From a virus, in IMG/VR virus record IMGVR_UViG_3300049734_000491, positions 1 through 64,000 of that record: a stretch of DNA of 64,000 nucleotides. One strand, given 5' to 3'. The position numbers and the translations under genes are program-made. The notes under the pieces are model-generated. The model searched no databases. It had not been told where the DNA came from and was given only the letters and a program-made list of their open reading frames with translations. How positions within the stretch are numbered: position 1 is the stretch's first letter; each line of letters starts with the position of its first letter. Of the stretch, positions 10,854-28,093 are shown in pieces.

Positions 10854-10927
10854 TGGTGTTCCTTCCGTAGTTGATGATTGATGGTCTGTAGTGCTGGGGT
10901 TGCCAGCCCCGTCAGCATAGGTCGTGA

Positions 10928-12841: not shown

Positions 12842-13016
12842 TGCTTTGCCTTTCGGGTTGTGGTTGTTGCGTTGTTGATGTGGTCTACATTAGTGGATGG
12901 ATTCGATACTGTCAAGTCGTGGTTCTTGATCCTGTGAGCAGGCCAGGGGAGCTCAGCTCCCCCAGCCGCTCGAGCCGGCCGGCGACCACGACGAAGCACG
13001 GCCAGCGATCCTGCCG

Positions 13017-13976: not shown

Positions 13977-14083
13977 GGTCGTGGTCCTTTGTGGTTGTCG
14001 TGGTCGTTGTGCTTGATGTTGAACAGTGTAGTTGATGGTTTCTAGCTTGTCAAGCCCGGCCCTGGGGCCGGCCGGGCAAGAGC

Positions 14084-14545
14084 TCAGACAGCGTCGCAGC
14101 CGCCCGTGAAGACGACGTCGTTGTCCTCGATCACCGGACGACCGAGATGGTTGTCCTTCCAGTGCTTCGCACGGAATCGTGCCGAGATGCCGCGTCCCTT
14201 GCGAGACTCGATCTGGATCAGGTCGGCGTCGGTCAGACCGACGGTCAGCTCGCAGATCAGTCGGCACTCGCGAGCCGGCACGGACGAGTCCAGTTGGATC
14301 ATCTCGCTCAGCGCCTGTCGGGCGTGCTCGTCGGTCGGCAGGTAGCTGGCCGTCCACTGGCCCTGCTTCGCGTTCATGGCAGCCTGATACCGCATGACGA
14401 GCGGTCCAGCCAGCATGTAGCGGAGCGTGATCACCTGATCCTCGGTGATCGTGGCATCCGAGGCGGCGTCCACCCGCAACAGCTCGACGAAGTACGCCTT
14501 CTGTCCGGGCACGTCTTCCTTGTTGGGAACGTGTGCGTAGATCAT
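14084..14545 (-). CDS. Hypothetical protein
   Basis: Own promoter (14592-14620) and GAAAGGA RBS. Confidence 0.7.
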   Translation of the reverse strand: MIYAHVPNKEDVPGQKAYFVELLRVDAASDATITEDQVITLRYMLAGPLVMRYQAAMNAKQGQWTASYLPTDEHARQALSEMIQLDSSVPARECRLICELTVGLTDADLIQIESRKGRGISARFRAKHWKDNHLGRPVIEDNDVVFTGGCDAV

Positions 14546-14712
14546 GGTTGTCGTGGTCCTTTCGGGTTGGTTGTCGTTGTTGATGTTGGTCAGTGTAGTT
14601 GATGGTTTCTAGCTTGTCAAGTCGGCGTCCCAGCGGGTGAGGATGTCCTCAACTTGCCGGCCCGTCGTTCATGGGAGCAGTATAGGTTATCATACCGCCA
14701 ACGTCAAGTCGA

Positions 14713-15015
14713 TCAGAAGAAGTACCTGCTGACGGTCTCAGGTGCCAGCTCCGGGTGTTCGACCGGCTCCCATCCGATGGAGGCGCACTCGAAGGTGGTC
14801 TCGCCACCGAGCACGATGCGATCGCCCACCGAGAGCGAGTGGCTCCGGAAGTCGGCTGGATGGTTGATGTTGAAGGTGCGGAAGAGCTCCTCGAGCGAGC
14901 CGATGGCATCGCCCTCGAAGGGCACCTCGCCGGCGTAGGTCTGCTCGTACGGGCCCCAGAGGGGATCGGTGTAGCTGGCTGGCTTGCGCTGCCAGAGCTC
15001 GTATGGGATCTGCAT
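14713..15015 (-). CDS. YodL-like domain protein
   Basis: LEELFRTFNINHPADFRSHSLSVGDRIVL signature. Confidence 0.8.
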   Translation of the reverse strand: MQIPYELWQRKPASYTDPLWGPYEQTYAGEVPFEGDAIGSLEELFRTFNINHPADFRSHSLSVGDRIVLGGETTFECASIGWEPVEHPELAPETVSRYFF

Positions 15016-15147
15016 GATTGCCTTTCGGGTTGTGGTTGTGGTCGTTGCTTCGTTGGGGGACACAATAGTGGATGGACTGCAGTCAATGCAAGTCAGTTGT
15101 GGTACTGATCTGAGCTGGAGCTCAGCCTGGCCGACCAACTTATTTCA

Positions 15148-15211
15148 GGGCAGCCTTCGGCCCTCCTCTCGAGGTACTCACTCCCCTCGAGCAGTTGGTC
15201 ATCCCGGATCG
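15148..15211 (-). ncRNA. Candidate structured RNA, family A, copy 1
   Basis: 54/64 identical to 23269-23332 with three compensatory stem pairs; lies downstream of the promoter at 15260. Confidence 0.6.
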
Positions 15212-15393
15212 GTTGTGGGTGTCGGTCGTGGTGGACTCCTTTCGTTGTTGTTAGTAATCAGTATAGTGCATGGATCTCGAGCTGTCAAATCGAGCTGAGG
15301 TCCCCCTGACACGAGAAACCTTCCCCTCCGGTATGACGCCGGCGGCCTCAAGATGGGACACAGCCCTTTTTCGCCGAACCTGGCTGGCCAAGA

Positions 15394-15837
15394 TCAGAAG
15401 TCCCATCGCAGCCGCCGGCAGGTCCGGCACGCTCGAGCACCGGACGGATAGCGGTAGGTGTTGTCCTCGTCGAAGGGGTGTCCTTGAGGGCAATGGGTCT
15501 TAGCCCGCTGCCAACTTCCCTTGTTCGGATCCTTCTTCCTTCCCACGAGGGGGGATCGGCGAGCGTTCTCCTGGTTTGTGACTACTTCGAGGTGGTCAGG
15601 GTTCACGCAGGCTGGAGTCCGGCAGAGGTGGTCCAGCTGGAGTCCGGCAGGGATGTCAGTGACGAGTGCTTCGTATGCCACACGGTGAGCCTGAAACAGC
15701 TGGCGGTTGTCTTGTCCTCCGATTGAATATCGTCCGTACCCGTCAGCGTTCTTGGCTGCGGTCCAGAGCCAGCATCCGCCAGCCTGGACCTCAACCTTCT
15801 TCCAGAACCTCTCCTCGAGGATGGGATCACCGAACAT
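15394..15837 (-). CDS. HNH endonuclease
   Basis: RFWKKV, CWLW, LDHLCRTPACVNPDHL, THCPQGH, CRTC. Confidence 0.85.
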   Translation of the reverse strand: MFGDPILEERFWKKVEVQAGGCWLWTAAKNADGYGRYSIGGQDNRQLFQAHRVAYEALVTDIPAGLQLDHLCRTPACVNPDHLEVVTNQENARRSPLVGRKKDPNKGSWQRAKTHCPQGHPFDEDNTYRYPSGARACRTCRRLRWDF

Positions 15838-16190
15838 CAGAAGATCCCCGATGCCTCCAAATAAATGAGTGGCATGAACATCTCGGTGGGGTCATCCCCC
15901 CACGAGAGTCCGCCCGTGAGCCAGATCGTCTCCCCCCCGAACTCGAGGACGGTGATGTCCCGGCGAGGGCCCCGGACCCCCTCCACGGCAACGCGGAGGC
16001 GGTCCTGGACGTACTCCAGCACTTCCCCATCCTCGACGGGATCGTGCAGCTCGGCGTAGCCGGCCTGCTCGGCGTCGGTGAAGATGCGGTCGGCGTCGTC
16101 CACGGTGAGGCCGGAGATGAGCTCCTCGAGCTCCTCCACGGTCCGGCCGTGTCGGTCGACGGCGTAGGCGATCAGCATGTCAGCGCCCAT
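15837..16190 (-). CDS. Conserved hypothetical protein
   Basis: Acidic, with a TGGLSWGDDPTE motif; coupled to the HNH gene. Confidence 0.65.
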   Translation of the reverse strand: MGADMLIAYAVDRHGRTVEELEELISGLTVDDADRIFTDAEQAGYAELHDPVEDGEVLEYVQDRLRVAVEGVRGPRRDITVLEFGGETIWLTGGLSWGDDPTEMFMPLIYLEASGIF

Positions 16191-16259
16191 TGGTCGGCCC
16201 TCCCCACGCTCGGGCGATGGAGACCATCACCTCGTTGTAGAGCTTGGTGATCTGGGCGC

Positions 16260-16490
16260 TCATCGTTCGACCGCCTCGACGTCGATGAGGATGGCCTCCT
16301 CGGAGAGCTCGTCCCGAGCCTCGGTGTCGGTCAGGTCCAGCACGTCCTCGTCGATGAGGAACTGGTAGCGGTGCTCATCGGTGGGCAGGGCGTCGAACTT
16401 GGCCTTCTGGGCGTCGTTCAGAACTCCCTGCTCCTCGGTGCGGTACCGGATGATGGTGTCCCGGTGCACGGTGATCAGGTGATCGGTCAT
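16260..16490 (-). CDS. Small acidic protein
   Basis: Promoter at 16531 plus RBS. Confidence 0.65.
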   Translation of the reverse strand: MTDHLITVHRDTIIRYRTEEQGVLNDAQKAKFDALPTDEHRYQFLIDEDVLDLTDTEARDELSEEAILIDVEAVER

Positions 16491-16556
16491 GGTTGTGGTT
16501 GCCTTTCGTTGGTGGTTGTTGTTGTAGATCAGTGTAGTTGATGGAATGTAGGTCTG

Positions 16557-16949
16557 TCAAGCCGGCCGGATCTCGTCGATCGCCCGATGGGCCTGCCAGT
16601 CGACCCAGTTGACGAGATCGACCACGCTCTGGCCCACGGCGTCGCCGAGAGCCATCACGTTGTCCTCGATGTCGGCTGGGACGGGTTCCCCCATGTCGAA
16701 GCCGAAGAGCCCCTGTCGGAGGATCTCGTAGACGTCGAGGTCGAGGGAGGTGTTGGTCCAGCCGATGACTCCCTCCATGTCCCAGCTGATGGTGAACTCC
16801 TGGCTGGCCGGCGTGACGGTGAGCACGAAGCCGTCGCCGATCCCGATGTGAACGTCGGGGCCCAGAGCGAACTCGAGGAACTCGGCTGCCAGTCGAGCCT
16901 TGTCTCGGAGTCCGTCCTCGGTGACGGGTTGGATGTTGATGGTGGTCAT
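16557..16949 (-). CDS. Hypothetical acidic protein
   Basis: ATGA overlap with the upstream gene. Confidence 0.65.
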   Translation of the reverse strand: MTTINIQPVTEDGLRDKARLAAEFLEFALGPDVHIGIGDGFVLTVTPASQEFTISWDMEGVIGWTNTSLDLDVYEILRQGLFGFDMGEPVPADIEDNVMALGDAVGQSVVDLVNWVDWQAHRAIDEIRPA

Positions 16950-17182
16950 CGCACGGCCTCGCAGTTCTGGAGGGCGTGGAGGGCGGCCTGGAACGCACGG
17001 TCGGCCTTGAAGTAGGCCTCCTCGGTCTCCTCGGTCTCCTCGTCGGCTTCGATGATCTTCTCCTCGAGGATCCTCGCGTCGTGGAAGTCGATGGCTGCCT
17101 CGCCGAGATCGTCGAGCAGCTTCTCGAGCTCTCGCCGCTGGGCGAGCTGTTGGTTGGTCAGGTTGGGGAGCATGTCGCTCAT
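16946..17182 (-). CDS. Small acidic helical protein
   Basis: Promoter at 17215 plus RBS. Confidence 0.65.
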   Translation of the reverse strand: MSDMLPNLTNQQLAQRRELEKLLDDLGEAAIDFHDARILEEKIIEADEETEETEEAYFKADRAFQAALHALQNCEAVR

Positions 17183-17231
17183 GGTGGTTGCCTTTCGTGG
17201 TCGTTGTTGTGGTCAGTGTAGTTGATGGTTG

Positions 17232-17567
17232 CTAGCTTGTCAAATCGTCAAGCAGCACCCAGTGGTCGACGCCGGGGATCATGTTGAGTGTGCGGCCGCA
17301 GTCCCAGTCCACCCAGATCTGGGGGAGGGGCCCGTCCACCACGCCGGTCACGGTTCCCCGACTGCCGGCTGGGACCGGGTAGGGGTCGTCTGGCATGTCC
17401 ATGAGCTCGACCCGCATCCCGACCAGAATCGGTCGGTGGGTTCCGTTCTCGTTCTCCAGCTCGTCGTTCCCCGAGCAGCCGTCCCCCTCGGTCTGGTCGA
17501 CCCAGGCGGAGCCACCGTTGGTGAACTCGAGGTGGAGGATGTCGCCGCAGTAGGCACAGGCCGGCAT
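17232..17567 (-). CDS. DUF4314 domain protein
   Basis: GMRVELMDMPDDPYPVPAGSRGTV...IWVDWDCGRTLNMIPGVD. Confidence 0.8.
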   Translation of the reverse strand: MPACAYCGDILHLEFTNGGSAWVDQTEGDGCSGNDELENENGTHRPILVGMRVELMDMPDDPYPVPAGSRGTVTGVVDGPLPQIWVDWDCGRTLNMIPGVDHWVLLDDLTS

Positions 17568-17770
17568 CAGACGACCTCCACGGTTTCCATGAGGAAGGCG
17601 AGCAGCTCGTCGTAGCTCTTGCAGGCGAGCGCCTTCTTGGCGAACTCGTCGGCGTTGGCGGAGCCGTGGGCCCGCAGGATGGACTTGCGGACCACGCCGA
17701 TCAGAGCGAAGGCGTTGCCGTCGGTGCCGGTCAGCTTGACGGTGAGTCCGGGGTAGGTCGGCGTGCTCAT
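17567..17770 (-). CDS. Conserved small phage protein (DGNAF motif)
   Basis: VKLTGTDGNAFALIG...SYDELL. Confidence 0.7.
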   Translation of the reverse strand: MSTPTYPGLTVKLTGTDGNAFALIGVVRKSILRAHGSANADEFAKKALACKSYDELLAFLMETVEVV

Positions 17771-18084
17771 GCTCCCGCCTCCGCTTCGTAGTAGCCGATC
17801 TTGCGAGCGCCCGAACGGAGGGCGTCGAAGTCCAGGTCCTCGAACGCTGTGGGCGTGTCGAGAGCGTTCTCGATCGCATCGAACAGGTGGCCGACGCTCG
17901 CCACCGTGTCGGCGTCGTAGTCGAAGTCGCTCAGCATGAAGATCAGCGTGTTGCACTGGTCCTCATCGGTTTGGTCGAACTCGTTGTCGCCGGTCTCGTC
18001 GCGGACGTCCAGCACGTTCTCGTACCGGGCTTCCATGACCCAGAGCAGGGCGCCCTTCTCGGCGTCGGTCAGGTCGATCTTCAT
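17767..18084 (-). CDS. Acidic hypothetical protein
   Basis: Promoter at 18115 plus RBS. Confidence 0.65.
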   Translation of the reverse strand: MKIDLTDAEKGALLWVMEARYENVLDVRDETGDNEFDQTDEDQCNTLIFMLSDFDYDADTVASVGHLFDAIENALDTPTAFEDLDFDALRSGARKIGYYEAEAGA

Positions 18085-18139
18085 GTCGTGGTCCTTTCGT
18101 TGTTGTTGTGGTACATGATAGTGGATGGTTGCTAGCTCG

Positions 18140-18568
18140 TCAAGTTGAGGCCGGCCGGCGGATGGAGATGTTGTGCCACCACTCAGCCGGGATCGGCATG
18201 GTCGTGATCCACCAGTGGCGGGCGAGCTCAAGCCCTCCCCCTGTCGAGATCATGGTGTCGACCCACCAGTCCTGGAAGTCAGGATGGCAGCGGGCCCACA
18301 CCAGCCATGGAGCGACGATGGTGGGATGGATGGAGCTATCTGGGATGTCCACGGTGATCTCCACCTCGGACTTGTCGGCGAACCCTCCCCCGAGCCCGTG
18401 GAGGTCCTCCTCCCCCGGCTCGAGCGGTCGGTCCAGGAACCAGACAACTTCGTGGGGATGGGGCGGATCCCAGCTCACATTGGATTCGGTCAGCGTCAGC
18501 CAGCCGGCGTCCTCGATCATGGGCAGATGAAACCCTGATGTATAATGGTACAAACGCTTTGGAATCAT
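18140..18568 (-). CDS. Hypothetical protein, possible ADP-ribosyltransferase-like fold
   Basis: LYHYTS...L..I...GWL...VVWF resembles the start of ART/Tpt1-like domains. Confidence 0.45.
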   Translation of the reverse strand: MIPKRLYHYTSGFHLPMIEDAGWLTLTESNVSWDPPHPHEVVWFLDRPLEPGEEDLHGLGGGFADKSEVEITVDIPDSSIHPTIVAPWLVWARCHPDFQDWWVDTMISTGGGLELARHWWITTMPIPAEWWHNISIRRPAST

Positions 18569-19044
18569 GGTTGTCCTTTCAGCCGTCGCTTCCGTTCACG
18601 CTCTGTTTGAGCACGACAGGCGCGACAGGCTCGATGTCCTTGTGTGTTGATGTAGGTGTTCTTCTCGTCGTAGGGGTGTCCCTGAGGGCAGTGCGTTTTG
18701 GTTCGGTTTCTTGCTCCCTTCGCTGTCCTAGTGGCTTCGGTGTCAGGGGAACGTCGGACGTTCTCCAAGTGAGTCACTGCTTCGAGATGTGATGGATTGC
18801 AACAAGTTCGGTTCTTGCAGAGGTGGTCGATCTCGTAGCTTGCTGGGATGGATTCCTTGAAGGCTTCGTAGGCCACTCGGTGGGAGTAGTCCTCCACTCC
18901 TCTACCGATGGTGTATCGGCCATAGCCCTGGCCGGCCGAGGCTCCGATCCAGAGCCAACAGCCAGTTTCGTTCGGCCGGACCTTCTCCCAGAACCGTTCA
19001 CTGAGGATGGGATGTCCGAACACAGGCTCACCGTCGACCCACAC
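18565..19044 (-). CDS. HNH endonuclease (paralog of 15394-15837)
   Basis: FGHPILSERFWEKV, IDHLCKNRTCCNPSHL, THCPQGHPYDEKNTY. Confidence 0.85.
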   Translation of the reverse strand: MWVDGEPVFGHPILSERFWEKVRPNETGCWLWIGASAGQGYGRYTIGRGVEDYSHRVAYEAFKESIPASYEIDHLCKNRTCCNPSHLEAVTHLENVRRSPDTEATRTAKGARNRTKTHCPQGHPYDEKNTYINTQGHRACRACRAQTERERKRRLKGQP

Positions 19045-19050
19045 TGTTGG

Positions 19051-19398
19051 TCAGTCCCAGTCGAGGTCATCGGGAAGCTGGTACGGCTTGTGGTCGATGA
19101 CGATGTAGGCCACCGAGCCGGTCTCGGACATGGAGTCCCAGCCGTTGGTGTAGGCGTGGAAGATCTGGCCGTACTTGTCGGCGGTGACTTCCAGCATTTC
19201 CATCCGGGCGTAGCCCGGCTCGGCGAACTCGGCCATCCCCTTGAAGGTGGCTGGGATCTTGGGCAGAGCCTCGGCGGCCTCCCGCAGCTTGATCTCGGCG
19301 AGATCCAACTCAGCCAGCGCATCCTGGAAGGCTCGCTGTCCGGGTGTCATCTCTTCCCACCGCTTGCTCGCGGCGCTGAGGTACTGGTCGTCGGTCAT
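19051..19398 (-). CDS. Hypothetical protein
   Basis: Promoter at 19429 plus RBS. Confidence 0.65.
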   Translation of the reverse strand: MTDDQYLSAASKRWEEMTPGQRAFQDALAELDLAEIKLREAAEALPKIPATFKGMAEFAEPGYARMEMLEVTADKYGQIFHAYTNGWDSMSETGSVAYIVIDHKPYQLPDDLDWD

Positions 19399-19453
19399 GG
19401 TCGTTGTCCTTTCGTCGTTGTCGTGGTCAGTATAGGGGATCGCTCCCCCTTTG

Positions 19454-19921
19454 TCAAGCCAGCGGGTTGTAGCCCGGAGGCGGGTCCTGTTGCAGATGGT
19501 TGTAGTGGTCGATCAGGTCTTGGACCTGCAGCCCTCGGTTGAGTTCGACCGTGCCGGACTCGACCAGTTCGGCGAGTTCGTCGATGTCGATGGAGAGTTC
19601 CTCTCGGTCCTCAGCCAAGTTCCGGTGCCAGGGGATGTACGGTCGATCGCAGCGGGTCGCCCCCACCCGACCGAGGCCGGGCACGGTGACGGGCTTGTAG
19701 CCACGGGTCGTCATCAGACGACCCTGCTCACCGGCCTTCTCGAAGCAGTCATCGCAGATGTTGAATGCGATGAAGCTCAGGTCGAGCGAGTCGTAGACCC
19801 GGCTCCCGTAGTTGCCCGAGGTCTGGCACATGACGCCGTCCCGAGGTTGGGCCTCGTACTCGTCCATGTCCCGGAGCAGGGTCCGGCCACAGATGAGGCA
19901 GGGGAAGGACTCGCTGGTCAT
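19454..19921 (-). CDS. Zn-finger hypothetical protein
   Basis: CLICG...GNYGSRVYD...ICDDC. Confidence 0.65.
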   Translation of the reverse strand: MTSESFPCLICGRTLLRDMDEYEAQPRDGVMCQTSGNYGSRVYDSLDLSFIAFNICDDCFEKAGEQGRLMTTRGYKPVTVPGLGRVGATRCDRPYIPWHRNLAEDREELSIDIDELAELVESGTVELNRGLQVQDLIDHYNHLQQDPPPGYNPLA

Positions 19922-20076
19922 GCGTTCTCCTCGATGATCTCGACGCCCCAGATCTCGATCGCGGGCTCGTATCGAAGAGTTACGGCTTTGATGAAGAGTT
20001 CCTGAGCCTCAGCTTCGGTGACGTGGTCGTCGTCGTAGCGGAGGGTCATCTTCACGTTGAAGATGGTGTGTTCCAC
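19918..20076 (-). CDS. 52-aa hypothetical protein (below the ORF-track cutoff)
   Basis: Promoter at 20110, RBS, GTG start, ATGA overlap with the next gene. Confidence 0.55.
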   Translation of the reverse strand: MEHTIFNVKMTLRYDDDHVTEAEAQELFIKAVTLRYEPAIEIWGVEIIEENA

Positions 20077-20163
20077 CGTGGTTGCCTTTCGTTGTGGTTG
20101 ATGTTGTGTAGTATAGGGGATGGACCCGCCACTGGCAAGTCCATCCCCCAGGAGGAGCTCAGC

Positions 20164-20346
20164 TCACATCATCCCGAGGATGAGGAGCGGCGAGCGGTAG
20201 CCGTGAGGGCACCGGCCGTCGGGCTCGACGGGGCAGCCGTCGAACGCCTCGGTGACGCCCTCCCACATGATCTCCTCGAGATCCTCGAAGTCGAGTTGGT
20301 TGACCCAGCGCCGCTCTTCGGCCTGCTGATCGGGAGTGAGTGGCAT
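20164..20346 (-). CDS. Small Cys/His protein
   Basis: DGCPVEPDGRCPHG motif; promoter at 20381. Confidence 0.65.
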   Translation of the reverse strand: MPLTPDQQAEERRWVNQLDFEDLEEIMWEGVTEAFDGCPVEPDGRCPHGYRSPLLILGMM

Positions 20347-20429
20347 GGTGGTTGTCCTTTCGTCGTGGTTGTTGTAGAGCAGTATAGGGGATGGACTGCA
20401 CGGTGTCCAATCCATCCCCTAGAGGGAGC

Positions 20430-20861
20430 TCAGTTGTTGAGGTGCTGGAAGGCCGCGCGCAGGGCCAGCGCCTCGCTCGTCTCGAGCAGGGTGATGATCT
20501 CCTGGATCTCGGCGAGCAGTCGCGGGCCCTCGTGGTCGGAGAACCCGATGGTGTTCCCCATGTCGTCGGTGCGAGCGAGCACCACCGGACCGTTCACGCG
20601 GAACCCAGCCATGATGCTGGCGATCGGGTTCGGCTGATCGGCGTAGGTGTAGAGGTACTCGTCGTCGTGCCAGAGGTCGGTCCCGTCGGCGAGCTGGTGG
20701 ATCTGGAGCGTGCCGGGGATGATCGACTTGAGGAAGTCGTAGGTGGTGTCGCCACCCTCCACGTCGATCGTGGCCGGCGAGACCTGCCAGCCAAGCTCGG
20801 TGGTGCCGTCCTCGAGGAACGTGACGGAGGGGAGCATGACGATGACTCGTGGGTTGGTCAT
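20430..20861 (-). CDS. DUF3846-like protein
   Basis: LWHDDEYL...PNPIAS...VNGPVVL; promoter at 20898. Confidence 0.55.
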   Translation of the reverse strand: MTNPRVIVMLPSVTFLEDGTTELGWQVSPATIDVEGGDTTYDFLKSIIPGTLQIHQLADGTDLWHDDEYLYTYADQPNPIASIMAGFRVNGPVVLARTDDMGNTIGFSDHEGPRLLAEIQEIITLLETSEALALRAAFQHLNN

Positions 20862-20932
20862 TGTGGTTGCCTTTCGTTGTCGTGGTTGTTGTCGGTCAGT
20901 GTAGTTGATGGATGGTTGACTGTCAAGTTGGC

Positions 20933-21181
20933 TCAGTCGTCCATCGGGGCGCAGTGGGCGAACAGGCGGTCGGTCAGCATCAGGTGGTCTCGGTACCGGA
21001 TCTCGCAGGCCTTGCAGTCCTCGAGCGTGCACTCGTCGCCCCATCCTGGGAGGGACCAGTTGTCGGCGACGTCGTAGACGTCATCGTCCGAGAGGCCCTC
21101 GGGCTTCCGGTCGAAAGCGAGCATGAGCTCGGTGGAAGCGAGGATGGCTCGGTCGCGGTAGGTGAGCATGAAGAGTGGCAT
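20933..21181 (-). CDS. Hypothetical protein
   Basis: Promoter at 21222. Confidence 0.55.
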   Translation of the reverse strand: MPLFMLTYRDRAILASTELMLAFDRKPEGLSDDDVYDVADNWSLPGWGDECTLEDCKACEIRYRDHLMLTDRLFAHCAPMDD

Positions 21182-21252
21182 GGTGGTCGTGGTCTCCGGT
21201 GTGGTTGTGGTTGTTGTGGTCAGTGTAGTTGGTGGTTCTCGGTCTGTCAAGT

Positions 21253-21537
21253 TCAGCTGATGAGCTCGATGAGACTGGTGGAGCCGGCCTCACGGGTCAT
21301 GGCCGGGATCTGTTCGGCGATGTAGAAGAGCTGGCTGGCAGTCATGTCCAGCGCCTCCGCGATCCGGTCCATTGTCTTGAGGGCCGGAGCCTTCTGGCCC
21401 TTCTCAATCTCGGAGATGTACGGGTAGCTGATGCCAGCCGCCGTGCCCAGCTCTCGCCGGCTGATGTCCAGGAGGACTCGGCGGAGCACGATTGCCTTAC
21501 CGAGGTTCTTGCGGAAGTGGAACTCTGTCTCGTTCAT
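21253..21537 (-). CDS. XRE-family HTH transcriptional regulator (leaderless)
   Basis: ISRRELGTAAGISYPYISEIEKGQKAPAL..IAEAL; ATG 7 nt after the -10 box. Confidence 0.85.
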   Translation of the reverse strand: MNETEFHFRKNLGKAIVLRRVLLDISRRELGTAAGISYPYISEIEKGQKAPALKTMDRIAEALDMTASQLFYIAEQIPAMTREAGSTSLIELIS

Positions 21538-21569
21538 GGAGGTCAGCATAGTCCTTGGTTCGTGGTCTG

Positions 21570-21806
21570 TCAAGTTGAGCGGTCCAGGTGGCCGCAGGCC
21601 TTGCAGCGCCGGCGATGTGGCACGCCGTCCCATGCATGGCACCCGCACCCGCAGGTGGCAGCACGGCGGTCGGCCACGATGCAGCCGGTGGGCCCGATCA
21701 TGTGGCTGGCATCGGGGACCACCTCAAACCATCGGAGGGCCCGCTCGAGGTCGGTGTTGCGCCGCAGGGTGCCGTGGTTGGTCACGAGGTAGTAATACCC
21801 CTTCAC
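21570..21806 (-). CDS. Small Cys-rich protein
   Basis: CGCGCH...CKACGH; GTGA overlap with the upstream gene. Confidence 0.5.
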   Translation of the reverse strand: MKGYYYLVTNHGTLRRNTDLERALRWFEVVPDASHMIGPTGCIVADRRAATCGCGCHAWDGVPHRRRCKACGHLDRST

Positions 21807-22000
21807 TGTGACACTGCCTTCCGAGTCTCTCGTTCGGCGTCCGCCGCGAGCTCGTAGGCGTGGTTGATGGCAGCCAGCATCCGGCGGCTCATCTCGCGGT
21901 CACCGTCGTTGTCCTCTGCGTTCTCGAGGTAGTCCATCCAGGCAACCTTGAGCTGCTCGGCGAGGATGAGGTACTTCATCTGGCGCTCTTCGGCGGTCAT
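21803..22000 (-). CDS. Hypothetical protein
   Basis: Promoter at 22034 plus RBS. Confidence 0.6.
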   Translation of the reverse strand: MTAEERQMKYLILAEQLKVAWMDYLENAEDNDGDREMSRRMLAAINHAYELAADAERETRKAVSQ

Positions 22001-22083
22001 GGTCGTGGTCCTTCTGTTGTCGTCGTTGTGGTCAGTATAGGGGATGGACCTGCCACGCTGCAAGTCCATCCCCTAGATCGTCC

Positions 22084-22413
22084 TCAGACGATGGAGGGGC
22101 TGTTGGGCCGCACCGACCGGAAGGTCGTGGTGGTCCCGATGGCCGCCCAGACCTCGGGGAACTCGTCCTGCACCTTCTTGGCCGACACGTTCGGACGGGT
22201 CGACTCGACGATGGTGACGACGACGGCACCGCCGTGGACACCGGCCGTGGCGCCAACGGAGTCCATGCGAGCGAGCAGTGCGCCGCGGATCTCCTTCTGG
22301 CGATCCTCGAGCTCCGCCAGCGTGCGGCGGATCTGCGCCAACTCGCTCACGGCGAGGAGCTCGGCGCCGGTCAGTTCCACCGTGGTGGGGAGAGGGGTCG
22401 GGGTCATGGTCAT
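22084..22413 (-). CDS. Hypothetical coiled-coil protein (paralog of 10455-10853)
   Basis: Promoter at 22456; KKVQDEFPEVWAA motif. Confidence 0.65.
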   Translation of the reverse strand: MTMTPTPLPTTVELTGAELLAVSELAQIRRTLAELEDRQKEIRGALLARMDSVGATAGVHGGAVVVTIVESTRPNVSAKKVQDEFPEVWAAIGTTTTFRSVRPNSPSIV

Positions 22414-22513
22414 GGCACTGTCCTTTCGTTGTGGTTGTCGTGGTTGATGTTGTTCAGTATAGGCGGTGGACTTGTGGAGGTCAAGTCCACCGCCCATAGA
22501 TCTGTGGCCGGCC

Positions 22514-22684
22514 TCAGGCCCGCCCGGCCCGACGGGCCTCGCGGCGAGCGGCGAGTCGATCGGCGGCGGCACCGCGGCGAGCGATGGCTCGGACCTCGGA
22601 GAGCCGGTCCCGACGGACCTCGTCCATCGGGGTGGTGAGAAGGTCGAGGGTGAAGGTGACGGTGTGATCGCTCTCGTAGAACAT
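22514..22684 (-). CDS. Small hypothetical protein
   Basis: Promoter at 22728 plus RBS. Confidence 0.55.
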   Translation of the reverse strand: MFYESDHTVTFTLDLLTTPMDEVRRDRLSEVRAIARRGAAADRLAARREARRAGRA

Positions 22685-22776
22685 GGTGGTCGTGGTCTGC
22701 CTTTCGTGGTTGTCGTTGTTGGAGGTCAGTATAGGGGATGGATTGGTGCCTGTCCAATCCATCCCCAGGAGCTCTC

Positions 22777-22935
22777 TCAGAGAGCTGCCACCGCCCGTTC
22801 GATGCGCCGCTCCTGCCACGCGATGGCTTCGGCCAGCCGCTGCGGGTCGGGGGAGTCACCGCGCATCTGGATGGTGACGAGGTTGAAGTGGCACTGGAGC
22901 GCGTGCACCAGCTCGTCGCGAGGGTCGTACTTCAT
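22777..22935 (-). CDS. Small hypothetical protein
   Basis: Promoter at 22970 plus RBS. Confidence 0.6.
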   Translation of the reverse strand: MKYDPRDELVHALQCHFNLVTIQMRGDSPDPQRLAEAIAWQERRIERAVAAL

Positions 22936-23018
22936 GGTCGTGGTCCTTTCGTCGTCGTTGTTGTGGTACATGATAGGGGATGATTCTCGATCGGCGCCAA
23001 TCGGATTCTGAGGAGCTC

Positions 23019-23177
23019 TCAGCCTGCGATGGCTACCTTGAGAAGCCTGTCGTACAGGTACCACCGGCTCCGGGGTACGGAGCGAGCCAACTCGTTCTCA
23101 GCCCGCTCGAGGTTGGTGAACCGCTGGCCGCGGCTGGAAGGGTTCTCTCTGTCCTTGATTTCGTATCGCAGCTTCAT
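23019..23177 (-). CDS. 52-aa leaderless protein (below the ORF-track cutoff)
   Basis: ATG 7 nt after TATCAT; MKLRYEIKDRENP... Confidence 0.55.
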   Translation of the reverse strand: MKLRYEIKDRENPSSRGQRFTNLERAENELARSVPRSRWYLYDRLLKVAIAG

Positions 23178-23268
23178 GGGGATCATGATAGTTCATGGTT
23201 TGTAGTCAATGCAAGTCGGCGGCCGGCCTGGGTGAGCTGGAGCTCAGAAATGCCGGCTGGATATTTTT

Positions 23269-23332
23269 GGGCAGGCTTCGGCCCTCCTCTCAGAGTCCTC
23301 ACTCCCTCTGAGCAGTTGGTCATCGTGGATCG
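23269..23332 (-). ncRNA. Candidate structured RNA, family A, copy 2
   Basis: Starts a few nt after the predicted +1 of the promoter at 23345; covaries with copy 1. Confidence 0.6.
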
Positions 23333-23399
23333 CTGTATGGGTACAGTATAGGGGATTATTTGTAAGCTGTCCAGCCGACCCCTGAGGGCCGGCCTAGGA

Positions 23400-23639
23400 T
23401 CAGCCTCGAGGTCCGGTCGTCATGATCTCCCCGGTGTGGACCAGCTCGGAGAGCTCAGCCATGATCCGGAACCTGATGACTCGGCGAGCCGCCACATCGA
23501 GGCGGTCCGCGAAGTCGGTTGTGTCCGCCGACGGGAACTCCGCGCAGAACTTGGCGAAGCCCTCGGTCATGTTCTTGAGGATCTGTTCGGCCTCGGCCAG
23601 GTCCTGGCGAGCCTCGAGCAGATTGAGCGTTGTGTTCAC
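23400..23639 (-). CDS. Hypothetical protein
   Basis: Promoter at 23676 plus RBS. Confidence 0.6.
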   Translation of the reverse strand: MNTTLNLLEARQDLAEAEQILKNMTEGFAKFCAEFPSADTTDFADRLDVAARRVIRFRIMAELSELVHTGEIMTTGPRG

Positions 23640-23727
23640 TGTCTGCCTTTCGTGGTTGTCGTGGTTGATGAGGTCAGTATAGGGGATATTTCTGAGACTG
23701 TCAACTCTAGCATGAGCTCGAGCTCAG

Positions 23728-23798
23728 AGCTGCCGGCGGGAGTCGAACCCGCGTCCCGGGCTTTGCAGGCCCGTGCCTCACCGCTCGGCCACGGCAGC
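23728..23798 (-). tRNA. trnC: tRNA-Cys (GCA), CCA not encoded
   Basis: Acceptor GCTGCCG/CGGCAGC, anticodon arm CGGGC-CTGCAAA-GCCCG, T-arm GCGGG-TTCGACT-CCCGC, discriminator U73. Confidence 0.93.
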
Positions 23799-23803
23799 GT
23801 GTT

Positions 23804-23950
23804 TCAGTAGGAACCCTTGCGGCACGCCTTGCGGGAGGCTTCCTTGCGCCGGTCCTTGAAGGTGTGCGCCCGCTGGGAGATGCGCTGCATCCGAACCTCC
23901 AGCCGGGGCGTCTCGAACTTCGTCGACTTCTTGGGCTTGCTCTTTGCCAT
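23804..23950 (-). CDS. Small very basic leaderless protein, probably co-transcribed with tRNA-Cys
   Basis: MAKSKPKK...FKDRRKEASRKACRKGSY; ATG 6 nt after TATACT. Confidence 0.65.
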   Translation of the reverse strand: MAKSKPKKSTKFETPRLEVRMQRISQRAHTFKDRRKEASRKACRKGSY

Positions 23951-24008
23951 AAGGGTAGTATAGGGGATGGCTCTGATAGTGTGCAAGTCGAGGCCGGCCT
24001 GGCTGAGC

Positions 24009-24293
24009 TCAGTCCCGGCTCAGCCGGCTCCGCAGCCTCGGCGACTGCTCGAGCCAGTCGGGGCTCTCGTTCAGCGGGCAGGGGTGGAAGTCGGCCCGAA
24101 CCAGCTCGCGCCCGAGCCGGAGCTCCACACAACCGATGCAGAGCATCCCGTCGCCGATGCGAGGGCCGATGCCAGTGAGGTCCCAGACCTCGTCCTCGAG
24201 CTGGTAGTACTCACCGATGTCCAGGGTGTTCACGCCGCAGTCAGCACACTCGAACTCGACGAGGGGGGCATTTTGTGGGTATGGATTGGTCAT
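24009..24293 (-). CDS. Zn-finger conserved phage protein
   Basis: CADCG...EYY...VW...GMLCIGCVELRLGREL..DF. Confidence 0.7.
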   Translation of the reverse strand: MTNPYPQNAPLVEFECADCGVNTLDIGEYYQLEDEVWDLTGIGPRIGDGMLCIGCVELRLGRELVRADFHPCPLNESPDWLEQSPRLRSRLSRD

Positions 24294-24323
24294 GATTTCC
24301 TTTGTTGATTACCGTATCCGATC

Positions 24324-24755
24324 ATGGAGTCGTGGCCAGAGAGTGTTCGGCTGTCGACCAGAGAGTGCTGGTCATGGCCCGTAGAGACTGCTTACCGTCG
24401 AGATGGCCGTGCCACAGCTAGTAAGCAGTACATCTATCGGCTGCTCTACTTGATGTTGGTTGATCCGGATTTGTCAGATGACTTGGTATTGCACCATTTG
24501 TGTGGCAATGCGTGGTGTGTAAATCCTTGGCATCTCATTACCAAGACTCCAGCCGAACATGCTGCGGAGCACTTGGCTGAGCGGAACGCTCGCCGGCGGA
24601 AGCACACCTGTAAGAACGGCCACGACATGGACGATCCTGGGAATGTGGGCACCTTCACTCGAATGAAGGATGGAGAGGCTCGTGAGGAGCGTTACTGCCG
24701 AGCCTGCCGAGCTCTTTGGAAGAAGCGTCGGCAGGCTCGTCAGCGTGGTCTATGA
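24324..24755 (+). CDS. HNH endonuclease inserted against the array orientation
   Basis: CWSW, LHHLCGNAWCVNPWHL, CKNGH, CRAC; lower GC. Confidence 0.8.
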   Translation: MESWPESVRLSTRECWSWPVETAYRRDGRATASKQYIYRLLYLMLVDPDLSDDLVLHHLCGNAWCVNPWHLITKTPAEHAAEHLAERNARRRKHTCKNGHDMDDPGNVGTFTRMKDGEAREERYCRACRALWKKRRQARQRGL

Positions 24756-25322
24756 GACCTTCCCGCGCTTTGCGAGGATGGCCTCAGCTTCGGCCATGGT
24801 GGGGTAATGCCACCCGTTGTTCTTGCTGCACACCGGCCCGTAGCCAGCGGCGAGCGAGCGGCGGTCCTCAAGGTCGGCGAAGCAGTTGATGCACTGCATG
24901 TACTCCCAGCCCCACAGGCGGGCCTGCTCGTCGCTCATCAGCGTGTCGGCCGTGAGGGTGCGGAGGCCCTTCTTGCCTCGGTAGAGCCAGTGCCAGTCGC
25001 CATCCTCGGCCACGAGCTCCTTGCCCACGATCTGGCCGGTGTTGCGGGTGGCGATGACTCGGATGATCGCACCGTCGAGCGGGCGGACGTGGAGGCCCTT
25101 GGGCGGGTCCTCGCCACGGTGGGCGGCGGGCAGGCGGGTGGCGGCCTTGGCCAGCACCTTCGCGTGCATGGACCGTGCGGCCGCTTCCTGCTTCGGCGAG
25201 AGCCGGTGAGTGTCGAGGTACTGACGGGAGAGGCTCTGGGCGAAATCCGACCAGGTCTGGTCGTGCAGCCAGTCGGCGAGCTCGTCGAGGGTGATCGTGG
25301 TCTCTGTCGTGGTCTCGTTCAT
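24750..25322 (-). CDS. DUF6011-like Zn-finger protein (leaderless)
   Basis: CINCFADLEDRRSLAAGYGPVC; FAQSL..Q..LSPKQ. Confidence 0.7.
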   Translation of the reverse strand: MNETTTETTITLDELADWLHDQTWSDFAQSLSRQYLDTHRLSPKQEAAARSMHAKVLAKAATRLPAAHRGEDPPKGLHVRPLDGAIIRVIATRNTGQIVGKELVAEDGDWHWLYRGKKGLRTLTADTLMSDEQARLWGWEYMQCINCFADLEDRRSLAAGYGPVCSKNNGWHYPTMAEAEAILAKRGKVS

Positions 25323-25376
25323 GAGGGTCAGTGTAGTCCTTGGTTCGTCGTCTGTCAAGTCAGCCTGTCCACCAGC

Positions 25377-25559
25377 TCAGAAGCAGGTGTCACAGGTGCA
25401 GTGCGAGCGCCGACCGGACTGGCAGCGGGTGCTGGCATCGTGGCTGGGGCCGAACGGAACGCGGCCGGTTTCGTTGGCCTTGGCTCGATCACGGTCACAG
25501 GTGGGGCACTCACCCTCGGGGGCGAAGACTCGGTTGAGGTAGTCCTGGTCGGGATGCAC
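25377..25559 (-). CDS. Small Cys/His-rich protein
   Basis: CPTC...PSHDASTRCQSG..HCTCDTCF. Confidence 0.65.
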   Translation of the reverse strand: MHPDQDYLNRVFAPEGECPTCDRDRAKANETGRVPFGPSHDASTRCQSGRRSHCTCDTCF

Positions 25560-25648
25560 GGTGGTCCTTTCGTCGTCGTTGTTGGAGGTCAGCATAGGGG
25601 ATATTTCCCGTACTGTCAACTCGGGGGCCGGCCAGGCCGGGCCCGAGC

Positions 25649-25801
25649 TCAGGAGCTCGAGCCCAACCGAGCCTCGGCCTCGGCGCGGGCGTCGGCGCAA
25701 GCCTGCCGAATCTTCTCGGCGAACTCGGCGAACCGATCCCAGTCGGCCTCGGTGCAGTTCTCCCAGAAGGCCGTTCTCTTGTCGGTGGCGGGCATGTCCA
25801 T
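25649..25801 (-). CDS. 50-aa hypothetical protein
   Basis: Promoter at 25840 plus GAAAGGA RBS. Confidence 0.5.
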   Translation of the reverse strand: MDMPATDKRTAFWENCTEADWDRFAEFAEKIRQACADARAEAEARLGSSS

Positions 25802-25909
25802 CGTCCGGTCCTTTCGTCGGTGTCGTGGTCAGTGAGGTCAGTATAGGTCATGGCTATCTGACCGTCAAGTTCGGTTTGAGCTCCAGCTCAGCGAGCTGGT
25901 CCTCGAGCC

Positions 25910-26341
25910 AGAGAGGCGGTGGGAACCCCGGGCCGGGACTGCTTCGGCGCTACTTCCCCGGCAGGCGTGCACACCTCCGGTTACCTCACGACTCGGTGGG
26001 CCCGTTCTCCCCGTTCGCTCCCCTTACCGTTCGGGCTCCACCACCTTCATGAGTCGAGGATTTTCGACCGTAGGGCGTTTCACAGCCGTACTTGCGAGGG
26101 CACCTCCGGGGTCCCGGAGTTCTCATCGCTTCTCTGTGCGTTGGCCGTGGGGAGATTTCTCTCCCCGTGGCCGGCGAGTTCAGCGGGAATGGCTCTGTGG
26201 CTCGCGATGCCACTCGGCTCCCGGAGGACTTTCGGGCGTGTCCCCACTCACCCTCGGACTATCAATCTGGCGACCACCTCCGTTCGGGGCACTCCTACCG
26301 CCGTTTCGACCGTCGTGCGGAGTGCTTTGCTGTTGTTGTTG
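25910..26341 (-). ncRNA. Candidate large (about 430 nt) structured non-coding RNA
   Basis: Perfect promoter at 26348-26376; no RBS-led ORF; long-range closing helix (26293-26302 with 25915-25924, extended by CCCCG/CGGGG); internal hairpins. Confidence 0.6.
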
Positions 26342-26372
26342 TAGAGCAGTATAGGGGATGGTTTCCCCGTTG

Positions 26373-26525
26373 TCAACTCGGCGGTCGGTGACCCTCGAGC
26401 TTCCTCAGGAAGCCGAGTCTCCGACTCCGCCGTGCGTCGGCGCTGCCGACCGTCCAGGTCTGTCGGACGGCCTCAGCCAACTGGCGCCGGAGCTCGGCGC
26501 GGTCGGCGTTGTAGTCGGCGCTCAT
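26373..26525 (-). CDS. Small basic protein
   Basis: ATGA-coupled to the upstream gene. Confidence 0.45.
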   Translation of the reverse strand: MSADYNADRAELRRQLAEAVRQTWTVGSADARRSRRLGFLRKLEGHRPPS

Positions 26526-26695
26526 GCCGACCGCCGTCGGTACTCGGCCAGCGTGATCGTGCCGCGCTCGTCGTCCTCGAGGACCGTGGCTCGGTCCCAG
26601 AAGCGGGACGTGCCGGTGTAGGTCCCAGCGGGATCGCCGGTGTTCCGACGACCGGTCCGACCGGCGAGGCGGGCGGTGGGTTCGTTGTTGTTCAT
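26522..26695 (-). CDS. Small leaderless protein
   Basis: ATG 7 nt after TATCAT at 26703. Confidence 0.5.
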   Translation of the reverse strand: MNNNEPTARLAGRTGRRNTGDPAGTYTGTSRFWDRATVLEDDERGTITLAEYRRRSA

Positions 26696-26857
26696 GTCGG
26701 TCATGATAGGGGATGTTTTTGGGATGGCGCAAATCGTCGGCCAGCCCTGGATGAGCTCGAACACAGCAAGTCGTTTGTGGTATCTTGACGTAGTGGTATC
26801 CATGCACTATCATGTACTACATCAAGAGCGGGGAGGGTCTCCGCAGGAAAGGGCAGG

Positions 26858-26995
26858 ATGTACGAGGACAGTCACCTCGAGGCGGACTACGAGGATCGTT
26901 GGATCGCTGACACCGACGTCGATGACTCCGATTGGGAGGACGACTACTCGGACCTGGCCTACGAAGGCAGCGAGCACGCTGAGTTCGACTGGTGA
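26858..26995 (+). CDS. 45-aa extremely acidic protein
   Basis: Own promoter TTGACG-17-TATCAT (26785-26813), purine-rich RBS, 19/45 D+E, followed by a GAAA hairpin at 27001-27025. Confidence 0.7.
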   Translation: MYEDSHLEADYEDRWIADTDVDDSDWEDDYSDLAYEGSEHAEFDW

Positions 26996-27087
26996 GGTGA
27001 GGGGGCCGGCCGAAAGGCCGGCTCCGCCGCGTCCCGGGACACCTCGAGCGGAGCTCGAGCTGCCGGCGGCGCGTTCGGGAATACCGC

Positions 27088-27160
27088 GGATATTTTTCCG
27101 CAGGTTTCGGCCCTCGCCTCCCGGTATCCCTCGCCGGCGGGTTTCGTCATCTCGGATCGC
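27088..27160 (-). ncRNA. Candidate structured RNA, family A, copy 3 (divergent)
   Basis: GCGATCC..GATGAC...GAGGGCCGAA.CCTGC..AAAAATATCC shared with copy 2; directly after the promoter at 27170. Confidence 0.5.
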
Positions 27161-27217
27161 TTGAATGTCAGTATAGGGGATGGACTTGAACTTGTCAAGC
27201 CCATCCCCGGAGGCAGC

Positions 27218-27439
27218 TCAGGGGAGCTCGTCCCAGGCCGCGAGCAGGGCGTCCACGGGGTACTCGACTCGGAAGTCGCCGACCACGATGTTCTCGCAGG
27301 TGGTCACTCGGACGATGTGGAAGCCGTCCTCGTAACCCACGAACGCTGCGTAGATGCTCACGAAGGTGGGGTCGGCGGGGACGTACTCCGTGGCCGAGAG
27401 GGGCAGGTGGGCGATTTCTTCGGCGTGGTCGATTGCCAT
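27218..27439 (-). CDS. Small acidic protein
   Basis: First gene of the leftward array. Confidence 0.55.
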   Translation of the reverse strand: MAIDHAEEIAHLPLSATEYVPADPTFVSIYAAFVGYEDGFHIVRVTTCENIVVGDFRVEYPVDALLAAWDELP

Positions 27440-27467
27440 CGGTCTCTTTCTTGGTCGGTGGTTAGGC

Positions 27468-27604
27468 CACCAAGGAGCTCAGGTCTGCAGCCCCGAGCGC
27501 CGTCCGAAGGAGAGCGGTGCAAACCACCGGCTTACGCACGACTCACCAGACACGATGCTGGAGGGGTGACAACCGTTTGCACTTCGGTCGGTTTTTCCTT
27601 GGTG
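27468..27604 (-). ncRNA. Structured 5' leader or ncRNA (about 135 nt)
   Basis: Starts near +1 of the promoter at 27610; closing stem CACCAAGGA/TCCTTGGTG; inner stem GTGCAAAC/GTTTGCAC. Confidence 0.5.
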
Positions 27605-27729
27605 AGAGCAGTATAGGGGATAGTTTTGAGGCTGTCAAGTCGGCAGGAGCTCTGACTCAACTAGGGGGGAATTTGTCGAGTTCGGGGCCATTCCGCCGTG
27701 AATTGGCTGGGATCGCTTATGCTTCCGCT

Positions 27730-28092
27730 GTGCCGTCCACAGTCCAGAGAGCTCTGCACCTCGTGCCGAAGCCAGAGCCAGAGCCGGCCCTCGAGCCCGT
27801 GAACCTGCGGGATGTGATGGAGTTGGCTGTCGGAGCTCTGGCTGTGTCCCGGATAGCTCGCCTCGTGGTTGACGACGAGATCTCGAAGCCCATCAGAGAA
27901 GCTGTCTCGAAGACCTGGCCGGGGAGCCCGCTCGAGACCTTGATCGGGTGCCGGGCCTGTGTTTCGGTGTGGGGAGCCGGCTTGGTTGTCGCCAACCTCG
28001 TTCCCCGGAAGGTCCGGCTGCTCCTAGCTCTGTCGGAGGTCGCCGTGATGGTGGAGCGGATGATCGATCGCCCGTCCACGAGGGAGTGGTGA
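27730..28092 (+). CDS. DUF1360-like membrane protein (leaderless), first gene of the head operon
   Basis: LAVSRIARLVVDDEI..PIRE...LIGCRACVSVW; TATGCT 6 nt before the GTG. Confidence 0.7.
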   Translation: MPSTVQRALHLVPKPEPEPALEPVNLRDVMELAVGALAVSRIARLVVDDEISKPIREAVSKTWPGSPLETLIGCRACVSVWGAGLVVANLVPRKVRLLLALSEVAVMVERMIDRPSTREW

Positions 28093-28093
28093 C

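Follow-up and report, generated by a model that had tools for sequence, protein, structure and literature searches.

The window analysed here, which makes up the leading 64 kb of a soil-metagenome virus record of 127,992 bp (IMG/VR record IMGVR_UViG_3300049734_000491; estimated completeness 95%, G+C content of the phage genome about 64%), carries on its minus strand an array of short gene cassettes at about 8 to 28 kb (8043-27638), and at three places in this array lies a short intergenic element that we describe as a candidate small RNA family. The portal protein encoded at 28094-29869 (+) has 34-38% identity to those of Actinomycetia phage DSL-LC01 and of large Arthrobacter, Microbacterium and Gordonia phages, which places the phage, by this protein, as a distant member of the large actinobacteriophages. 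Each cassette of the array is headed by a near-consensus promoter of the sigma-70 type, TTGACA-17-TATACT or TACACT. Promoter-like sites in 14000-28000 number 26 where 2.1 are expected, and nearly all of the 28 minus-strand promoters found in a scan of the whole genome lie inside the array. In most cassettes a CAACAAC...GAAAGG leader is followed by the ATG of the gene, while a few genes are leaderless, with the A of their ATG 8 nucleotides (nt) past the -10 hexamer. A first-pass annotation, made from the letters of the sequence, had described the element as a structured RNA in three copies, each behind its own strong promoter and each in the slot where a cassette would carry a gene, and on the copy number, the promoters and the slots our analysis agrees with it.

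Three copies of one element and their hairpin

The copies, here c1, c2 and c3, all read 5' to 3' on the minus strand, and the bit scores are those of a covariance model built from the three of them:

15140-15215 (-), core of c1: stem arms 15185-15191 and 15168-15174, loop 15175-15184, internal ATG 15200-15202; 97 bits
23261-23336 (-), core of c2: stem arms 23306-23312 and 23289-23295, loop 23296-23305, internal ATG 23321-23323; 98.6 bits
27088-27163 (-), core of c3: stem arms 27134-27137 and 27121-27124, loop 27125-27133, internal ATG 27148-27150; 82 bits

Between 15148-15211 in c1 and 23269-23332 in c2 the sequences are identical at 54 of 64 positions without a gap (84%), a count that had been given before and that our recount reproduces at the same coordinates, and the ten differences fall at positions 7, 8, 24-26, 36, 39-41 and 58. 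The third copy is 30% diverged, with 53 of 76 positions identical to c1 and as many to c2. Global alignment scores of 46 for c1-c2 and of 25 each for c1-c3 and c2-c3 lie far above those of 1000 mononucleotide shuffles per pair (means -7.5 to -8.8, standard deviation about 4.5, maxima 6 to 9), and a 19-base pattern has three exact matches on the minus strand of the whole record and none in a backward-read control, all of which bears out a family of three members. The covariance model gives the copies 82-99 bits and the genome's next best match at most 9 bits, with filters off over the array; the three copies are the only ones in the 128-kb phage record.

Diverged as it is, c3 still keeps four blocks, namely CGAUCC-NN-GAUGAC, a 9-nt loop CGAGGGAUA closed by CCGG/CCGG, GAGGGCCGAA-NN-CUGC, and a AAAAAUAUCC tail. 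The first three of these agree with what had been reported for this copy, but the tail is common to c2 and c3 only, where c1 reads GAAAUAAG. Between c1 and c2 the likeness extends over a module of about 190 nt made up of the element, a GAGCTC-type hairpin and the next promoter (GACTTGCATTGACT ... ACTAT). Besides the core of 64-76 nt, only the -35 and -10 hexamers, the hairpin and the next promoter are conserved in this module, and the spacers between them (the promoter spacer and those from element to hairpin and from hairpin to next promoter) have 2-10 of 16 positions identical per window. Since these spacers are scrambled while the core has stayed so similar, the comparison argues that the duplication is old and the core under constraint; patchy gene conversion is an alternative account of such selective conservation.

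Comparative support within the core is confined to one hairpin. In c1 and c2 this is a 7-bp stem, CUCGAGG/CCUCGAG in the former and CUCAGAG/CUCUGAG in the latter, around a 10-nt loop in which one base differs (GGAGUGAGUA in c1, GGAGUGAGGA in c2). Six of the ten differences between the two copies make up three mirrored changes, positions 24-26 with 39-41, that preserve pairing, and RNAalifold likewise reports three stem pairs changed on both sides with pairing kept, as the claim of compensatory pairs around a conserved loop had held. A gapped alignment writes the same stem difference as two mirrored indel pairs, and pairing is preserved either way. In c3 the stem has 4 bp, CCGG/CCGG, of a sequence other than that of c1 and c2, under the similar loop CGAGGGAUA; three different stems (7, 7 and 4 bp) thus stand at the same place under one loop type, GAG-N-GA(G)-N-A. 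Three DNA sequencing runs examined over 12500-28500 hold no variant in the elements and therefore no population-level covariation. By eye, we found no third hairpin at the A-rich tail, no pseudoknot between the loop and the 5' or 3' block and no G-quadruplex that the three copies have in common. Folding gives a long closing helix, ACCAACU/AGUUGGU, in c1 alone. The picture that emerges is of an RNA that would be mostly single-stranded and purine-rich, with one conserved hairpin and not a compact fold. Among its fixed unpaired blocks is a GGAGG-type Shine-Dalgarno look-alike directly 3' of the stem.

Promoters, putative transcript ends and reading frames

The surroundings of the three cores contain the following features:

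15260-15288 (-), c1 promoter: TTGACA-17-TATACT, 11/12 consensus positions
15216-15259 (-), c1 leader: canonical CAACAAC...GAAAGG, with ACG where aligned sister cassettes carry ATG
15110-15125 (-), hairpin closing c1: GAGCTC-type, folded, a type that also precedes other array promoters
15060-15098 (-), next promoter after c1: GACTTGCATTGACT ... CACTATTGT, repeat family D1, common to the c2 module; drives the YodL-like gene 14713-15015
23345-23373 (-), c2 promoter: TGGACA-17-TATACT, 10/12 consensus positions
23232-23247 (-), hairpin closing c2: GAGCTC-type
23182-23209 (-), next promoter after c2: TTGACT-16-CATGAT, overlapping TTGCAT; drives the leaderless 55-amino-acid (aa) gene 23019-23186
27170-27198 (-), c3 promoter: TTGACA-17-TATACT, 11/12 consensus positions, within a GGGGATGG...CCATCCCC inverted repeat
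27043-27059 (-), hairpin downstream of c3: CTCGAG...CTCGAG
27002-27025, GC-rich hairpin shared with a convergent plus-strand 45-aa cassette: putative end of the c3 transcript, no T-run

Aligned to the cassettes at 17243, 16560 and 20926, the c1 leader has ACG in a column where all three sisters have ATG, and the element starts 21 nt past this ACG. Both c1 and c2 are followed by a CTGAGCTCCAGCTCA hairpin, which stands 10-25 nt ahead of the next -35 box, and three further promoters also have a GAGCTC-type hairpin ahead of them, among them the promoter immediately behind the tRNA-Cys gene. Because a hairpin of this type follows the tRNA-Cys gene, the array packages at least one stable RNA with the same punctuation. 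The array hairpins that close these units have no U-run, so termination at them is presumed. The genes downstream of c1 (YodL-like, 100 aa) and c2 (leaderless, 55 aa) are unrelated, and on this ground we rejected the module as the leader of one gene family. The third copy is free-standing, followed by two hairpins and then by the one shared with the convergent plus-strand cassette, with no co-oriented gene downstream, and its transcript would likely end at the hairpin 27002-27025. A soil metatranscriptome (run X13) searched over 12500-28500 yielded no contig over the three elements and a few of 151-212 nt in other parts of the array, at a coverage too thin for this to carry weight and with DNA carry-over possible.

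No reading frame of the elements looks coding. At third codon positions, the G+C content (GC3) ranges from 0.51 to 0.65 over the six frames of c1 and c2 and from 0.65 to 0.76 over those of c3, far under that of 16 array genes, which average 0.84 (0.69-0.90). Reading from the ATG inside GATGAC gives frames 20, 46 and 63 aa long, and relative to this ATG a 2-nt gap in c3 shifts the frame of GAGGGCCGAA and of the shared 3' blocks, which agrees with the earlier proposal that conservation is at the level of nucleotides and not of protein. Between c1 and c2, two of the eight codons that differ in the ATG frame do so synonymously, and one of the other six turns a stop in c1 into a sense codon; in the +2 frame one of seven differing codons is synonymous. 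The stretch from the -10 hexamer to the ATG is 21 nt in c2 and 19 nt in c3 and holds no GAAAGG ribosome-binding site, and if transcription starts about 7 nt past the -10, the leader would be a short one of about 12-15 nt without a Shine-Dalgarno sequence. The ATG of these two copies is therefore neither of the leaderless type nor led by a Shine-Dalgarno sequence. In c1, where ACG follows the canonical ribosome-binding site, the start codon may have been disabled so that the RNA escapes translation, or a small gene may have decayed here. As a real gene the c3 frame of 63 aa is implausible, since it crosses the GC-rich hairpin 27002-27025 and reaches the last part of the convergent plus-strand gene. 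A protein-coding small gene was rejected on the sum of these counts, with neither a ribosome-binding site nor a leaderless start, an unconserved frame, low GC3 and few synonymous changes.

Some further features of the array touch the same elements. Its promoters come in two flavours, ...CAACTACACT and ...CCATCCCCTATACT, the second of which often lies within a GGGGATGG/CCATCCCC inverted repeat that spans the -35 box, and the variant GACTTGCATTGACT-...-ACTAT after c1 and c2 is otherwise unique. The sole plus-strand consensus promoter within the array, at 26785-26813 (the genome-wide scan gave one more, at 34541-34569), leads to a very acidic open reading frame (ORF) of 45 aa at 26858-26995, which ends in a GC-rich GAAA hairpin and is convergent on c3. 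Two consensus promoters of the minus strand, at 26348-26376 and 27610-27638, have no GAAAGG-ATG start in the next 70 nt, and the units behind them may be further non-coding ones. Searches for tRNA and tmRNA cloverleaves with ARAGORN and Rfam found the tRNA-Cys (GCA) at 23727-23798 (-) and none in the rest of the 128-kb genome; this gene lies downstream of a promoter-like site at 23985-23957, and a GAGCTC-type hairpin like those closing c1 and c2 then follows it.

Comparison with known RNAs and other genomes

At gathering thresholds, Rfam 15 matched only the tRNA in the whole window, and permissive scans of the three loci gave chance-level matches only (E 0.4-10, all far under the gathering scores), so that the description of the RNA as an unrecognised one stands as far as Rfam 15 is concerned. 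With regard to a CRISPR-repeat mimic of the RNA anti-CRISPR type, which would closely resemble a repeat of the host, one sub-threshold match to CRISPR-DR45 falls on the opposite strand of c1 alone (17.9 bits where the gathering score is 37, E 2.6), with none in c2 or c3. The first-pass annotation had also been reminded by the ends of the element of a hammerhead core or a k-turn, and neither resemblance survives closer comparison. The hammerhead catalytic core reads CUGAUGA ... GAAA, with a helix between its two strands. The elements do hold GAUGA and, about 35 nt on, CGAA, but the bases before GAUGA are GG, AC and GA instead of CU, the segments after GAUGA and before CGAA are not complementary, so the required helix cannot form, and hammerhead models found nothing at the three loci at E <= 10. 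In box C/D k-turn RNAs, a box C (RUGAUGA) and a box D (CUGA) are joined by a terminal stem. Here GAUGA is again present, but CUGA occurs in c1 only, and there is no terminal stem common to the copies, the ACCAACU/AGUUGGU helix of c1 lying inside the motifs.

Two kinds of phage RNA resemble the elements in general layout. Small regulatory or decoy RNAs that phages express from their own promoters form a general class, and the elements share with it a short intergenic unit, a strong promoter, a hairpin whose loop is fixed, the lack of a coding signature and the presence of multiple copies in a genome, although they have no sequence or Rfam relation to a described family. The lambdoid nut and put sequences are promoter-proximal antitermination RNAs, and like them the elements lie just downstream of early promoters, combine a single-stranded box with a fixed-loop hairpin and have putative hairpin terminators downstream; in contrast to them, c3 faces no co-oriented gene and the position of c1 is off by about 40 nt, and the likeness is one of layout, with no sequence similarity claimed.

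Since the same phage bears Tas genes, and since the elements hold GAUGA, tigRNAs also have to be considered. The TIGR arrays of the phage consist of units that read stem, 11 nt, CGACAGCC or GCGAU(A/G)CCC, 11-12 nt, stem. In the published accounts, the stem-loop tigRNA has a palindromic outer stem and two spacers of 8-12 nt that flank a conserved 9-nt loop (PMC12045711; 10.64898/2026.09.09.750476), with its units repeated in an array near tas (PMC12045711), and the units of the phage match the layout as given there. The elements, by contrast, lack a common palindromic outer stem and, measured by that same description, a pair of 8-12-nt spacers around a 9-nt loop, and they are dispersed, 55-100 kb from the tas loci; with the layout absent and the copies scattered, we rejected them as stem-loop tigRNAs. 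Their 5' GCGAUCC faintly recalls GCGAU(A/G)CCC, the loop repeat in the second TIGR array of the phage, but with 248 CGATCC sites in the genome (136 on the plus and 112 on the minus strand) we give this likeness no weight. A target of the phage's own tigRNAs would pair with both spacers of a unit at adjacent sites. As such targets the elements were rejected as well, since the spacers match them no better than chance, with isolated single-spacer matches of 8-10 nt that fall in the flanks and not the core; a 9-mer match is expected about once per genome by chance. Eleven octamers CGACAGCC stand on one strand at 3233-3855 (+), and the same sequence forms the loop repeat both in stem-loop units (82097-82326 and 82557, -) beside a Tas-like gene of 284 aa near 82.3 kb and in a solitary stem-loop unit at genome position 126894 (-); the octamer array at 3.2-3.9 kb may be a further TIGR-type array, far from any tas gene.

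Base-pairing targets of the cores were sought within the phage genome as well. Counts of reverse-complement 10-mers of the cores are 30-55 across the genome, where shuffled cores have means of 16-22 and maxima of 38-51, and the count for c1 exceeds every shuffle while those for c2 and c3 do not. Many of the matches contain CTCGAG, a motif common in the genome. We rejected one candidate target, ACTCACTCCC at codons 3-5 of the gene starting near 20346, as indistinguishable from many other 10-mer matches.

Searches of other genomes brought no homologue. Blastn of c2 and c3 against 50,697 GenBank phages gave only chance matches of 18-41 nt (E 0.9-10), megablast of 14 kb gave no match, and in IMG/VR two exact patterns spanning the element had 0 matches, where a 14-base pattern had at least 119. 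Pattern scans returned 32 matches in JGI metagenomes, none with CGATCC upstream or the A-rich tail downstream, and 33 in 185,579 species genomes; on these 65 loci the covariance model scores at most 21 bits, compared with 82-99 for the true copies. Nothing that the model recognises is present in Actinomycetia phage DSL-LC01 (best E 0.85) or in 40 IMG/VR loci that surround portals related at 28-52% identity (best E 2). A model built from the three copies and searched in this way, as had been proposed at the outset, finds those copies but no second genome, and the family is so far private to one genome. The distant portal relatives lack the TTGACA-17-TATACT cassette promoters as well: the nine loci, of the 40, that were examined for them hold a single such site. 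Closer relatives of the portal are known as proteins (P0002-P0004, 77-79% identity); no TasA relatives were found in IMG/VR, and single-protein queries with the AAA ATPase and the portal returned nothing.

An AAA_5 (MoxR-type) ATPase at 13017-14357 and a VWA/CoxE-like protein at 10928-12841 are encoded near each other on the minus strand, and at a position comparable to this pair the annotation of DSL-LC01 reads 'cobalamin biosynthesis protein'. Directly 3' of the portal gene, two giant ORFs of 2540 and 2358 aa lie on the plus strand (29875-37497 and 38541-45617), and DSL-LC01 carries one of about 3290 aa at this position.

Candidate small RNA genes and competing accounts

We favour the reading that the three elements are paralogous, free-standing genes for small non-coding RNAs that act in trans, and put its chances at slightly short of even. 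Because the loop and the unpaired blocks are fixed while the stem is replaceable and the surroundings are scrambled, and because the promoters are strong and a coding signal is absent, the three-copy element is probably a functional candidate small RNA family; in terms of classification it would be a new candidate RNA family in one uncultured phage, as yet unclassified but of a general kind that is known. On this reading, host RNA polymerase with a sigma-70-type factor would transcribe the three genes leftward and early from their consensus promoters, and transcripts of roughly 105-165 nt would stop at the hairpins that mark off the units of the early array. The part that does the work would be the hairpin, with a stem whose sequence can be replaced and a purine-rich loop, GAG-N-GA(G)-N-A, that is fixed, flanked by fixed single strands, CGAUCC-NN-GAUGAC on the 5' side and GAG(R)(S)GAGGGCCGAA-NN-CUGC, with its GGAGG-type look-alike, on the 3' side. 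Acting in trans, the RNAs could present these fixed purine-rich stretches to a partner that recognises them by sequence, either a pyrimidine-rich RNA or an RNA-binding protein of phage or host, and would serve it as a decoy or sponge. Of the mechanisms that could be at work, we infer such a decoy or sponge, acting by purine-rich, Shine-Dalgarno-like sequences, to be the most likely. The specific roles that the first-pass annotation had put forward, a protein sponge, an RNA antitoxin mimic or a ribozyme, are conjectural.

Several observations weigh against small RNA genes. The earlier description of the RNA as structured holds for the one hairpin whose stem is replaced and whose loop is kept, but not beyond it, as a second RNAalifold helix (GGGC/GCCU) pairs fully in c2 but is interrupted by a mismatch in both c1 and c3, the folding-energy z-scores of six folds (-1.45, -1.10, -1.91, -0.68, -0.24 and +0.31) are no better than those of shuffles, and the minimum-free-energy folds of the three full units differ from one another. 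The covariation is limited, coming as it does from three paralogues of one genome, and since no homologue was found outside this genome, the comparative evidence is confined to these copies and independent comparative support for the reading is absent from the collections searched. Mirrored changes in a palindrome-like repeat, moreover, can arise by template switching or gene conversion without selection, and CTCGAG is palindromic. Finally, the ACG of c1 is in frame with the internal ATG, which fits a decayed small gene, and the internal ATG stays in place in all copies with ACC or ACG after it, like the starts of array genes.

The element could instead act in cis, as a promoter-proximal module that is either an RNA leader (an antitermination signal of the nut or put kind, a processing signal or an attenuator governing whether transcription passes the next hairpin and enters the cassette beyond) or a DNA operator directly after the promoter. 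CGATCC starts only 12 nt past the -10 hexamer in c2 and 10 nt past it in c3, the element was duplicated as one with its hairpin and the unusual next promoter (GACTTGCATTGACT) in c1 and c2 ahead of unrelated genes, and an array of many promoters and hairpins with read-through would be open to such regulation. Yet c3 has no co-oriented gene to act on and faces a convergent cassette, and in c1 the element lies 48 nt past the -10, so that its distance from the promoter varies among the copies. A DNA operator would be expected to keep the sequence of its half-sites, whereas here the stem sequence changes and complementarity is kept, and no antitermination or riboswitch family of Rfam matches; we regard a cis-acting module as unlikely.

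Were the element a relic without function, a short piece of DNA, possibly the 5' part of a small gene, would have spread by segmental duplication and recombination between cassettes, its similarity being due to gene conversion or recent copying and its mirrored changes to palindrome repair. The recombinant look of c1 speaks for this, with a canonical promoter, leader and ribosome-binding site fused to the element with ACG for ATG, as do an HNH_3 homing-endonuclease gene directly upstream of the c1 promoter (15394-15837, -; Pfam E 1e-12; phrog_826 E 6e-54), the ATG-ACC/ACG start like that of true array genes and the confinement of the family to one genome. Scrambled spacers around a core that is 84% identical point instead to constraint on the core, all three copies have kept near-consensus promoters, and c3 at 30% divergence retains its four blocks and the hairpin at the same place, so that we rate a relic as rather unlikely, behind a cis-acting module. 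If, alternatively, short ORFs were translated from the ATG of GATGAC, as micropeptides or as upstream ORFs where translation itself matters, the invariance of this ATG in three of three copies, the Thr codons next to it, as in many array genes, and the open frames of 20, 46 and 63 aa would be accounted for. Such ORFs have no ribosome-binding site, however, and their ATG lies 19 nt (c3), 21 nt (c2) and 57 nt (c1) past the -10, compared with 8 nt in the leaderless genes of the array; the lengths and sequences of the peptides are not conserved, with the frame shifted in c3, GC3 is far under that of real genes, and the c3 frame, besides crossing a terminator-like hairpin rich in GC, overlaps the convergent gene at its end. 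Translation of this kind is the least probable of the accounts that we considered.

Within the reading of the elements as small RNA genes, a bolder version may be ventured, one that we hold to be improbable, if a little less so than translated ORFs. It would make the family a new phage RNA that titrates a sequence-specific partner through its purine-rich loop and GGAGG tail, an RNA-level device of anti-defence or host take-over expressed from early promoters, whose partner might be a factor of host defence or of translation, the 16S rRNA with its anti-Shine-Dalgarno end, or the TasA proteins of the phage itself, which have a Nop domain.

What the elements offer at present is a well-delimited candidate family. 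If the RNAs are real, a multi-copy, promoter-driven small RNA joins the early programme of a large soil phage of the actinobacterial type, and, taken together with the tRNA, the other candidate non-coding units and the TIGR-TasA guide systems, this would suggest an unusually heavy use of RNA in take-over and counter-defence.

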